Positions 3,487 to 22,434 of a stretch of DNA of 64,000 nt are shown in pieces; the first letter of the stretch is position 1; each line of letters opens with the position of its first letter. The notes below the pieces were generated by a model. It saw nothing but the letters and a program-made list of their open reading frames with translations, had not been told where the DNA came from and did no database searches. This DNA comes from an uncultured delta proteobacterium. Lineage in GTDB: Bacteria; Desulfobacterota; Syntrophorhabdia; Syntrophorhabdales; WCHB1-27. Where the stretch lies: NCBI GenBank assembly GCA_963810935.1, contig CAWEPK010000010.1, positions 224,001 to 288,000 of the forward strand. The letters are read 5' to 3'. The translations under genes and the position numbers were made by a program.

Positions 3487-4476
3487 CTACGCGATGGACG
3501 CGAGGGCCTGTTGGAGAAGGCCCTGCGCCGCCTTTGCCTTGTAACCGTTGTTTGAAAGCGGCTTCGCCTTCTCGACAGACGCCGCGCACGCCGCCGCCGC
3601 CGCGTCTGCAACTTTTCTGCCCTTTAGCGCAGCCTCGGCGGAAGGAACGCGCAGCGGCCGGGAAGCAAGCCCGCCGAAGGCGATGCGGGCATCCGCTACC
3701 AGGCCGTTTTGCATGGCAAGCACGACAGCGACGCTGACAAGGGCGAAATCGAACGCCTCCCTCTCCGTCAGCTTCATGAATACACCCCTGCCCGCAGCGG
3801 GCTGCAAAGGCGCCTCAACAGCGGTAACCATCTCCGCCGGGCATAGGACCGTCTCCGAGAGCACGTCCGCATCCGGATCGACATAAAACTGCGCGATGGG
3901 GACCGTCCGTTTACCTTTCGGCCCTTCTATCTCAACGCGAGCGCCGAGGGCGGCCAGGGCTACGGCTGTGTCAGATGGGCTGACCATAGCGCAGGCGCCG
4001 GCCGGGAAAATCGCATGGTACTGGTTCTCGCCGTCGAAGGCGTAGCAATTGCCGCCCCCTTTCCGGAGGCAGTCCTTGAAGGTCCTCCCCCGGAAATACC
4101 AGCAGCGCGGCCTCTGGCAGAGGTTGCCGCCGATGGTGCCTACGTTCCTTATCTGCGGGACGGCCACACGCTGCGCAGCCTGGGCGAGTACAGGCAGCCT
4201 GTTCCGGACAAGAGGCGATTCCGCGATATCCGTAAGCGTAGCGGCCGCCCCTATCCTCAGTACATCTTTCTCCTGCCTTATGTGGGCCAGGCCGTCAATG
4301 CCTTTGATATCTATCAAATGGACCGGGCTTTTCAGCTTTGGGCCCTCGACCCTGTCTTTCATCATGGCAAGCATATCGCTGCCGCCCGCAATTAGTGAAG
4401 CCTTGTCCCCGTGTCGCGCGAGGAGGGAGACAGCCTCTTTGACGGTAGCCGGCCTGTAATAGTCGAAGCCTTTCAT
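3487..4476 (-). CDS. Xanthine dehydrogenase-family FAD-binding subunit, PaoB/YagS-like
   Basis: AGGSD, QIRNVGTIGGNLCQRPRCWYFR and a Cys-rich insert typical of the 4Fe-4S-bearing PaoB. Confidence 0.9.
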   Translation of the reverse strand: MKGFDYYRPATVKEAVSLLARHGDKASLIAGGSDMLAMMKDRVEGPKLKSPVHLIDIKGIDGLAHIRQEKDVLRIGAAATLTDIAESPLVRNRLPVLAQAAQRVAVPQIRNVGTIGGNLCQRPRCWYFRGRTFKDCLRKGGGNCYAFDGENQYHAIFPAGACAMVSPSDTAVALAALGARVEIEGPKGKRTVPIAQFYVDPDADVLSETVLCPAEMVTAVEAPLQPAAGRGVFMKLTEREAFDFALVSVAVVLAMQNGLVADARIAFGGLASRPLRVPSAEAALKGRKVADAAAAACAASVEKAKPLSNNGYKAKAAQGLLQQALASIA

Positions 4477-4491
4477 CGTCTCTCTCCTCCC

Positions 4492-5131
4492 TTAAGCCTT
4501 CGATGCCGCAAGGACCGATTCGACGATCTTCGGATAGGCCCCGCAGCGGCAGATGATTGCCGGACATGGCCGTGCGGACCTCGGCGCGGCTGGGCCTGGG
4601 GTTTTTGTCGAGAAGCGCCTTCGCTGACATCATCTGGCCGGGCGTGCAGTAGCCGCACTGGTAGCCTCCATGCTCCGAGAATGCCTTCTGAATGGGATGG
4701 AGCTTCTCTCCCCGGCTCAGCCCCTCGACAGTGAAGACCTTCTTTCCGTCCATGGCAATTGCAAGAAGCGAGCAGGCGTAAACCGGCCTGCCATCGATTA
4801 TGACCGTGCAGGAGCCGCAGTTACCCCGGTCGCACGCCTTCTTGCTCCCCGTCAGCCCAAGCTCGCGCCTCAGCACGTCGAGGAGCGTCCAGTGCGACTT
4901 GACCTGAACGCGGTACAGCCTGTCGTTGACGTCCAGCCGGATGATCGCCTCTTTCACGCCCCGGGGCAGAGCGGCTGCCTGCTCCTGACTCGAGGAAGGC
5001 CTCGGGAGCGTGCCCATGGCAACAGCAACCCCGCCCGTAGCCATCCCTTTCAGGAACGAGCGGCGTGACATCTTCACCGGGTCCCTGCCGTCCTTTTCTT
5101 TCTTTTCGGCCTTATTTTCCCGGTCGTCCAT
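4492..5131 (-). CDS. 2x[2Fe-2S] subunit with Tat signal, PaoA/YagT-like (frameshift near 4556)
   Basis: SRRSFLKG Tat motif, CDRGNCGSCT and QCGYCTPG. Removing one base restores GNICRCGAYPKI, ending at TAA 4492. Confidence 0.88.
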
Positions 5132-6811: not shown

Positions 6812-6854
6812 TTGCGGGGCCAGGACTTGAACTTGGGACCTTCGGGCTATGAGC
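6812..6854 (-). repeat. Degenerate copy of the 3' half of tRNA-Met (att-like direct repeat)
   Basis: 40 of 43 nt identical to 22361..22403, same orientation. Confidence 0.9.
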
Positions 6855-11715: not shown

Positions 11716-11979
11716 CTATTTCTTCTTTGGTGGCGGGGCCGGCTTCGCGGTGGCCGCCGTGCCTGAAGCCTTCTGGACCGGCGCCCCTTTCACCGTGGGC
11801 GGAGGCGGGGGAAGATTGACGGGAACCCTGGCCGTGCTTAACTCGTTCCCCTGGCCTGTGGCCGGCCTGCTGTTGTCGAAAACCTGGCCTGCCGTAGAGG
11901 TCTGCTGGGCCAAAAGGCCGCCGGCAGCGAAGAACAGAAATAACAATGCGAGACCTGTGAAACTACCGATACGCTTCAT
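11716..11979 (-). CDS. Small secreted Pro/Ala/Lys-rich protein
   Basis: AAGGAGG RBS, signal peptide ending LLA|QQ, low-complexity mature part. Confidence 0.7.
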   Translation of the reverse strand: MKRIGSFTGLALLFLFFAAGGLLAQQTSTAGQVFDNSRPATGQGNELSTARVPVNLPPPPPTVKGAPVQKASGTAATAKPAPPPKKK

Positions 11980-12487: not shown

Positions 12488-12823
12488 TCATTTCGCGACA
12501 GGTTCTTTCTCTGCCGTCCCTGTGGCGGACGTCCCCGTAGTTCCCGGCTCGCCGGGGGCGGCGCCCTTTTGACCCGACGGAGGGGCAGGCCGTGGACGCT
12601 GGACCCCGTATTTGACGACCGGCTCGATTTTGTACGGCCGGTCCGGGGCCGGCGTCAATCTATCCGACGGGTACGGGGGCGGCGGCCCGTATTTGACCTT
12701 AAACCCACCGTCAGGCTGCTGCGCGCCGGACTTACCCGACAGCAGCAGCATACCACATAGGAACAGCCAGACGATCTTCCTGAAGCTGAACAGCTTTCTT
12801 GCCAATGCTTCTATAATTCTCAT
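12488..12823 (-). CDS. Secreted 111-aa Pro-rich protein with two VKYG motifs (candidate radical SAM substrate)
   Basis: ATG 12823 overlaps the rSAM stop (ATGA) with an AAGGAG RBS; signal peptide ...SGA|QQ; VKYGPPP and VKYGVQ lie 27 aa apart. Confidence 0.75.
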   Translation of the reverse strand: MRIIEALARKLFSFRKIVWLFLCGMLLLSGKSGAQQPDGGFKVKYGPPPPYPSDRLTPAPDRPYKIEPVVKYGVQRPRPAPPSGQKGAAPGEPGTTGTSATGTAEKEPVAK

Positions 12824-13918
12824 ACACACTCCTTGCCGTGAAGGCAGTTGAAGTGACAGACGTCCGGTGCGTTCGTGTCGAAATTCCACAGGTGGAGGCT
12901 GTTTCCCTTGCATATCCACCATTGCGCGCAGTCCCGGCAACTCCCCTGCCTCATCCACTGCCGGTCCCTGAACGGCTGGAACTTGTTCTCCCAGCAATCT
13001 GCGAAAGATTCCTTTCGGATGTTGCCCTGGACGAGCCTCCTCGATACGCTGGGGCAGGCCGATATCTCCCCGTGCGCGAGGATGCCGCCTATCTCTATGC
13101 CCGCCCGGCAACTGTAGAAGGCGTCCCTCACTTCCCTTTCGAGCTCGCACCCGAGGAAACCCTCCTCGTCTACCGATACGCGCATAGGCGCGCCTGCTTT
13201 CCTGGCATCTCTCGCGAACTCATAGAGCTTTCTGTAGTCGCCCGGCCGCAAAAGGAGGTCGTAGTTCCCTTTGGCCCTTCCGCCGGGAAACAGCGTGATG
13301 AGACGCCATTCCCGGACCCCCTCTTTTTCGATGAACTCGTGGATGTCCGGCAGCTTGTCTACGGTTCTCCTGGAAACGGTCGTAGCGACTTCGAGGCCCG
13401 AAAGAAACGCACGGTCCCCCAAGGCCCGAATGGCGCCTACCGCCCTGTCGAATGAATCCGCGTTCCGTCTCAGCCAGTTGTGGTCCTCCTTCAGGCCGTC
13501 GAGGCTGACCGTGACCGTGCTCATGCCGGTAGCCCGGCATTTTTCGATCGCCTCTTCCGTCATCGCGAACCCGTTAGTGACCATCCCCCACGGGAAGCCG
13601 AGCGCCGAGATCCTTTCGGTCACCGCGAAGATGTCCTTTCGCAGCAAGGGCTCGCCTCCGGTGATGGCGACCATTATACCTTTCGGGTCGTACCGCCCGG
13701 CGACCGATTCGAAGCCGCCTATGATCTCTTCCGTTGTCAACTCGAGCCGCGTGTCTTTGGCGGACGAGCAATCGCTGCCGCAGTGAAGGCAGTCTGAGGT
13801 TGCAAGCGAGCGTCGCCTCCCAAAAGAGGTACCGCAGGCTGTGCTCCATTGTGGCCAGGCGCAGGTATCGCGACCACGCCCTTAACTGGAGCCGTTTCTT
13901 AAAGTTACCGAGCACCAT
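12820..13918 (-). CDS. Radical SAM/SPASM enzyme, TIGR04133-like (frameshift near 13793)
   Basis: LFWEATLACNLR(+1)CLHCGSDC gives CxxxCxxC; TGGEPLLR; SPASM region CRAG...GEISACPS...QGNI...CRDC...CKGNSLH...CH. Confidence 0.85.
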
Positions 13919-15438: not shown

Positions 15439-15942
15439 ATGTCGAATATCAGTAGCGTCGGTAATTCTGTAACAAGCTCGCTGCTCAGCAGCATACTTTC
15501 GGGCGGCTCGACAACCACCTCGGGCAGCGATTCGTCAAACACTGCCTCCGATATCGTCAGCCTCATGAGTGGTTCGTCGTCGGACTCCTCCAATACCTCT
15601 TCAATCTATAATATCCTCAGCGGCAGCCAGGGATCGGACTCGGCGGGTTCCATGTACAGTGTCCTGCTTTCCGCCGAAAGCGCCAGCATAATGCAGTCTG
15701 ATCCGAGCCTGGCCCAGGACATCCTCTCGGCAAGCCAGACATCGGCCGGCAGCAGCTCCTCTTCCGGCTCTGCGACTTCCACTACAACGGCCACCCAGGA
15801 GCTTCTCCAGGAATTGGAGAACACGAACCTGCTCACCATAAGCCCCGACACTCTTACGTCCTTGTTGGAGAACAAGATGGCCTCAGCATCGCAGGCATCG
15901 TCGAGCACGAGCACCGGTTCTCAGGTGAGCCAGACGGCTTAG
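15439..15942 (+). CDS. Ser/Thr-rich hypothetical protein
   Basis: Strong RBS (AAGGAGAGGAG); starts MSNISSV and ends GSQVSQTA; no Sec signal. Confidence 0.75.
   Translation: MSNISSVGNSVTSSLLSSILSGGSTTTSGSDSSNTASDIVSLMSGSSSDSSNTSSIYNILSGSQGSDSAGSMYSVLLSAESASIMQSDPSLAQDILSASQTSAGSSSSSGSATSTTTATQELLQELENTNLLTISPDTLTSLLENKMASASQASSSTSTGSQVSQTA

Positions 15943-22360: not shown

Positions 22361-22434
<74 letters not shown>

Follow-up and report, generated by a model that had tools for sequence, protein, structure and literature searches.

The locus described here raises the question of whether a radical SAM/SPASM enzyme of a soil anaerobe splices tyramine out of a small, putatively exported protein whose gene it overlaps. 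The two-gene unit is located on the reverse strand of a 64,000-nucleotide stretch of DNA, referred to as the window. The TGA stop codon of the enzyme gene overlaps the ATG of a 111-aa ORF (12823-12488), which is buried within a 220-aa ORF and is preceded 5 nt upstream by AAGGAG, a Shine-Dalgarno-like sequence. An earlier note on this DNA had reported this overlap and the hidden gene, two VKYG motifs lying 27 aa apart in its product, and an identical 12-mer, GTCAAATACGGG, encoding them at 12686-12697 and 12605-12616; all were confirmed in the sequence, the 12-mer at exactly these positions. A third copy of the 12-mer was not present in the window with up to one mismatch allowed, and promoter and terminator scans at the locus gave chance-level results. 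The features of the pair are as follows.

12820-13918, reverse strand: radical SAM/SPASM enzyme gene, TIGR04133-like, approximately 365 aa, split by one extra base (from family profiles and orthologue L001)
13792-13794, reverse strand: the extra base, most probably introduced during assembly (absent in contigs of 4/4 runs)
13780-13804, reverse strand: CxxxCxxC radical SAM motif, broken by the extra base
12856-13110, reverse strand: SPASM domain with 6/7 canonical cysteines (from alignment)
12488-12823, reverse strand: 111-aa partner, the putative precursor, with a signal peptide and a Pro-rich body
12722-12823, reverse strand: predicted signal peptide, aa 1-34 (by rule and conservation)
12686-12697, reverse strand: VKYG site 1, candidate modification site, GTCAAATACGGG
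12605-12616, reverse strand: VKYG site 2, candidate modification site, located in the enzyme barrel when the L001 pair is modeled as a complex

Of 121 related genomes, 6 contained the enzyme, each of them a member of a single family, and the partner was found in the same 6 of the 22 genomes of this family, adjacent to the enzyme, and not in the other 16. No extra partners were found elsewhere in the genome, and a phylum-wide sample of 400 other genomes, with five candidates scored for each, yielded no enzyme. The partner exhibited no match to Pfam, NCBIfam, or TIGR04134. A profile search yielded 31 homologues including the window's own, which carried two YG sites in 21 cases, three in 7, one in 2, and none in 1, the last being apparently frameshifted. 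These sites were spaced by 8 to 45 aa; KYG accounted for 58 of the 65, and 65 of the 76 Tyr residues in the mature regions fell within YG, motif counts that are biased upward since the search profile itself contained KYG. Gene position provided a check free of this bias: a gene with two KYG sites was located directly downstream of the enzyme in all seven distinct loci found via close enzyme homologues (L001, L002, L003, L014, L094, L096, and L098), that of L003 and L094 being frameshifted. Column conservation of the partner was 0.90 at residues 15-26, 0.78 around each KYG, and 0.32-0.34 in the spacers and the tail. The earlier note had taken the identical 12-mer as a sign of site duplication, for which it is weak evidence. 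As proof of a recent duplication it was set aside: two VKYG motifs would share all codons with P ~0.04 under the codon use of the host genome, the flanks of the two copies agree at only 7 of 27 positions, and identical VKYG codons are not kept in 4 of 5 relatives. The multi-site layout of the partner is old and common to the family.

The genes flanking the pair differed among the five loci listed, in which no conserved protease, transporter, or RRE neighbor was recognized by eye. The metagenome-assembled genome (MAG) G002 contains two copies of the pair (L001 and L003) in different surroundings, one intact and the other with many frameshifts, reflecting either duplication or strain mixing. In G012, and in this genome only, the pair (L115:257-7748) lies directly downstream of a nitrogenase cofactor run that appeared nifK/nifE/nifB-like by eye.

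The wider TIGR04133-like clade, comprising 1,958 proteins at E ≤ 1e-60, was examined through metagenome loci. An adjacent gene encoding a signal plus YG was present at 45 of 50 fully flanked loci and at 65 of 80 loci in all, and the background of such ORFs was 166 of 907 in G000, the genome of the window, which is a single genome with a composition different from that of the loci. Conservation of xYG in the neighbors of enzyme homologues, which was among the checks proposed by the earlier note, was borne out at the family loci and in the wider clade. The partner was upstream only at 49 of the 65 positive loci. The residue X preceding YG was of 10 types (E 27, M 10, L 8, C 8, K 4, others 8); such free variation would be expected if the X side chain is a passenger, as it is in splicing. 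Most wider-clade partners appeared by eye to be lipoproteins. Those of L015/L016 and L072/L074 bear non-lipidated signals and C-terminal membrane anchors, and KYG also occurs in the lipoprotein partners of L041, L046, and L093, so that neither the non-lipidated partner nor the Lys-Tyr-Gly site is the novelty for which the earlier note had taken it. QPMYGV or VPMYGV sites with C-terminal anchors were observed at L015, L016, L043, L072, and L074, beside Methanocella-like and related enzymes. The L015 and L043 partners end in a QPMYGV site, as does the characterized, Pro-rich PcpA site in the portion of the PMC11414181 supplement consulted. In eight lipoprotein partners (L020, L021, L028, L033, L037, L054, L059, and L084), the motif was ACYG, in which X is the lipobox Cys itself; splicing at this site would alter the lipidated residue.

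The pair of L001 was modeled as a complex with alignments and scored 0.77 (runs of 0.03, 0.77, and 0.82; best of three controls, 0.02), the mark for this score being one that 116 of 157 solved pairs and 2 of 215 mismatched pairs reach. The runs agreed in at least 59% of contacts, with a partner pLDDT of at least 42. The confident interface consisted of partner residues 64-79, in which the second KYG reached far into the barrel with its Tyr71-Gly72; the signal peptide was not placed with confidence. This model supports the partner as a candidate substrate, but its score may reflect likeness to solved radical SAM-peptide complexes (anSME, SuiB, and ChlB), and it says nothing about chemistry. With the co-occurrence and the conserved sites, the neighbor is very probably the substrate of the enzyme.

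TIGR04133 was the best-scoring family of the enzyme, as the earlier note had suggested, with 377 bits for the intact orthologue, which is below the cut-off of 425; the two pieces of the window enzyme gave 333 and 29 bits, and three clade members 370-380 bits. The same orthologue scored 136 bits against TIGR04103 (cut-off 725) and 114 bits against TIGR03913 (cut-off 592). The main tree was calculated from 35 of the 55 assembled rows, leaving out near-duplicates and two long branches, and a quick tree of all 55 rows agreed with it. The enzyme fell within a Syntrophorhabdales group (100/100) inside a TIGR04133-like clade (97/99) that also holds the Parabacteroides and Treponema members of TIGR04133 and a Methanocella enzyme. 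This clade joined the TIGR04103/GDL side (98/95) at 99/99 through a long branch of 0.94, while MftC, PqqE, TIGR04347, and a NirJ/AhbD-like protein were outside this grouping. In this tree, TIGR04103 is represented by one uncharacterized member, and the rows contain no characterized spliceases; we take PlpX to belong with TIGR04103. The enzyme is thus sister to the PlpX-family/GDL clade, and not inside it. On the sister branch there is also an Agathobacter enzyme with neighbors that carry no precursor annotation. PlpX corresponds to IPR026482 in the consulted part of PMC11002830.

The enzyme was modeled with confidence (pLDDT 94) as a radical SAM/SPASM fold that has an additional helix at the N-terminus (residues 2-25) and lacks an RRE domain. 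Its closest solved folds were SkfB, anSME, and SuiB, none of them close (best sequence E of 2e-15; fold TM at most 0.70), and one match at 0.78 in an ESM Atlas fold search is a lead only. A Cys of the SPASM Cx3C pair was absent in 9 of 9 aligned TIGR04133-like rows, near the invariant His342. Invariant barrel residues differed from those of the PlpX-family/GDL rows, namely R205 versus Q, R214 versus N/Q, W110 versus C/T, and E252 versus I/V.

These results bear on the chemistry. According to the available part of PMC11414181, spliceases excise tyramine from XYG to generate alpha-keto-beta-amino acids, and by analogy with them the chemistry here is likely to be tyramine splicing, as suggested by the XYG motif, the free X, and the tree position beside the TIGR04103/GDL side. 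The TIGR04133-like enzyme would excise tyramine from both Lys-Tyr-Gly sites of the unfolded pre-protein in the cytoplasm. Features that speak against splicing are the differing barrel residues, the lost SPASM Cys, and the low TIGR04103 and TIGR03913 scores. The barrel and SPASM differences also speak for a rival in which the same enzyme-substrate pair performs other radical chemistry at Tyr-Gly, such as a Tyr cross-link, C-alpha epimerization or oxidation of Gly or Tyr, or backbone cleavage; this alternative also draws on the length of the branch between the two clades and on a literature search that found no chemistry described for TIGR04133. Against it, the XYG motif is the same as in the sister splicease clade, and an X that is free over 10 residue types does not suit an X-to-Tyr cross-link. 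Scott et al. (2022) reportedly described proteins with beta-amino acids from bacteria that dominate the human gut. Such proteins would fit TIGR04133/TIGR04134 and the clade; if so, the chemistry would be surer and the novelty lower. Other radical chemistry appears unlikely, though it deserves serious weight.

Per citing papers, as far as these were consulted, Scott et al. (2022) covered 27 characterized and 939 predicted splicease systems in 189 genera, from bacterial and archaeal genomes according to one citing sentence in PMC11626197. In the spliceotide systems PlpX/PlpY/PlpA and PcpXYA (type I) and RhaX, RcsX, and RasX (type II), a radical SAM/SPASM enzyme stands beside an XYG precursor, as here, and PcpA has several sites per precursor, as does our partner. 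The present enzyme differs in belonging to the sister clade with approximately 30% identity, in having the extra N-terminal helix, and in lacking a C-terminal extension and one SPASM Cys. In its partner, an export signal takes the place of a Nif11/DUF1843-type leader, and the X position is occupied by Lys, as opposed to Met, Leu, or an engineered Gly at the sites named in the consulted parts of the spliceotide papers. The GDL-motif/DUF1843 systems (TIGR03913) also have small YG/YA precursors beside a related radical SAM enzyme, but these precursors are helical and lack a signal peptide, and the present enzyme scored 114 against their cut-off of 592. TIGR04133/TIGR04134, an NCBIfam hypothetical equivalog of Bacteroidota and Treponema in which the radical SAM enzyme is paired with a lipoprotein, shares the clade, the two-gene layout, the exported partner, and a YG soon after the signal. 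The present enzyme stands below its cut-off (377 versus 425), and the present partner is encoded downstream, carries 2-3 KYG sites, and has no lipobox, anchor, or folded domain.

The N-terminus of the partner determines where the product would go. It comprises an amphipathic basic n-region, a strongly conserved core at aa 15-26, and an AxA|Q end, and these n-, h-, and c-regions fit Sec/signal peptidase I (SPI) export by rule and conservation only. Among the 31 homologues, Ala occupied position -1 in 30, Ala or Ser position -3 in 28, and Gln position +1 in 30. As the earlier note had stated, there is no lipobox: lipidation via Cys23 was considered and rejected, since this Cys is located in mid-core and is preceded by LFL. 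The mature region consists of 77 residues, including 17 Pro, with no hydrophobic stretch. After splicing, the modified partner would be exported by Sec and released by SPI as a soluble, unstructured protein of 77 residues that begins at Gln35 and carries two Lys-derived alpha-keto-beta-amide groups. No match was obtained in a glutaminyl cyclase search of the window's genome, which is 93% complete. Alternatively, the N-terminus could be a Tat-like RK signal, act as a purely cytoplasmic leader, or stay uncleaved as a membrane anchor, so that the product would not be a free exported protein. This is suggested by the 90% conservation of residues 15-26, which is unusual for a signal peptide, by a nearly invariant R15-K16 in a genome that encodes TatC twice, and by a hydrophobic core of only ~13 aa. 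However, this core is short for a membrane anchor, a twin Arg is missing, the cleavage-site columns fit SPI, and partners across the clade bear export signals, so that we consider the alternative improbable and prefer Sec export. A shift from lipobox to SPI signal has a precedent in the MNIO exported RiPPs, for which one maturase family handles both the lipoprotein DybA and the SPI-signal proteins ChrA and MelA1 in the consulted part of PMC13056109, although the MNIO enzymes and chemistry are unrelated to the enzyme here.

The same conserved core may also take over from PlpY as a leader that binds or activates the enzyme. This role is tentative, and we regard it as having slightly less than even chances. 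In the available part of PMC11414181, the leader helix of RhaA takes the place of PlpY as the activator, and leaders of types II, III, and V, but not type IV, were aligned with PlpY. The lack of an obvious RRE/PlpY gene claimed by the earlier note agreed with the absence of any PqqD/RRE match in the 93% complete genome, although PlpY-type proteins diverge too far for the PqqD model to rule them out. It is not a novelty, since non-cyanobacterial spliceases are as a rule two-component systems without a Y protein, like the present pair, in the same part of PMC11414181. The consulted part of PMC11626197 reports that spliceotide products inhibit proteases and that the DYG of RcsA was not modified, an example of a YG that is no modification site. 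An inhibitory action of the product on proteases that cut after Lys is possible but doubtful. A P1-Lys ketoamide suits trypsin-like proteases. We consider it rather unlikely, though worth stating, that an unanchored, disordered exported protein with 2-3 Lys ketoamides serves as a multivalent inhibitor or cross-linker of Lys-cutting proteases, made with the signal core as leader by an enzyme with a reduced SPASM set.

The enzyme gene of the window is split by the extra base, and the indel that the earlier note had placed near 13793 was checked against read contigs. The base was absent in 4 of 4 runs, which all come from one study, possibly include the source sample, and show strain variation. 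Other lone single-base insertions were found in the assembly at 4556 and 16445, each absent from one run, which makes other split genes in this assembly suspect; that at 4556 lies inside a frameshifted 2Fe-2S subunit gene (4295-5131). Intact orthologues were identified in an uncultured deltaproteobacterial MAG (L001, 365 aa, 96% identical) and in a Syntrophorhabdales MAG (84% identical). Because the runs lack the base, other lone insertions occur, and the orthologues are intact, the extra base is most likely an assembly artefact. That the window copy is a true pseudogene in the strain, as the frameshift in the assembly, the single study with its strain variation, and a frameshifted partner gene in G004 might suggest, or that enzyme and small ORF have nothing to do with each other, is highly improbable against this evidence and the strict co-occurrence of both genes. 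The full account of a pair, splicing, export, and a two-ketoamide product appears reasonably probable.

The pair is held by a 15.5-kb island located between a tRNA-Met gene and a copy of its 3' end, with the following boundaries.

6812-6854, reverse strand: 43-bp copy of the tRNA-Met 3' end, an att-like left island boundary (40/43 identical)
22361-22434, reverse strand: tRNA-Met, the right island boundary (from a tRNA scan)

The island contains TRAP-type transporters, a UbiD decarboxylase, a GntR-type regulator, and small secreted proteins; its genes form a patchwork, and their homologues occur elsewhere in the family. No integrase was recognized among the island ORFs listed, some of which were checked against family models, and none of the four runs had a contig joint spanning the att repeats. 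The earlier note had proposed an island in a different phylum; the tRNA-Met-bounded island is real, but recent import from Bacteroidota is unsupported, the nearest relatives outside the family being approximately 50% identical deltaproteobacterial and myxococcal proteins. The gene GC content of the pair, 0.60, matches the 0.58 of the genome and is native. The orthologues are 68-96% identical and have different neighbors, which suggests from sequence comparison that the pair is a long resident of the family. Two further small proteins were observed in the window. One (11716-11979, reverse strand), syntenic only in L003, is a second Pro-rich signal-peptide protein with the same A|QQ end and no Tyr-Gly. 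The other (15439-15942, forward strand) is a Ser-rich 167-aa protein without family matches, and a similar protein (L116:98-556) is encoded in G014 approximately 4.5 kb from the pair. ARAGORN detected three tRNA-Sec genes in the assembly (contigs C4, C6, and C11 of G000), representing contamination (7%) or true copies.

In the literature searched, which did not contain Scott et al. (2022), a work that may cover the clade, there was no description of the partner family or of a class of unanchored, disordered, multi-ketoamide exported substrates, no mention of TIGR04133, and TIGR04134 appeared only as a listing entry. Enzyme and precursor form a genuine, conserved pair whose general type is already known; to a specialist it would be a plausible extension and hardly surprising. 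Its distinguishing mark is the partner family, whose members are predicted to be unanchored, non-lipidated, and disordered and carry 2-3 KYG sites. If the account is true, it would provide a Lys-selective single-component splicease for protein labeling and a natural scaffold for P1-Lys ketoamide inhibitors. The lipoproteins that make up most partners in the clade are difficult to express. This small, predicted soluble, multi-site partner would be a convenient substrate for testing whether the TIGR04133-like clade splices.
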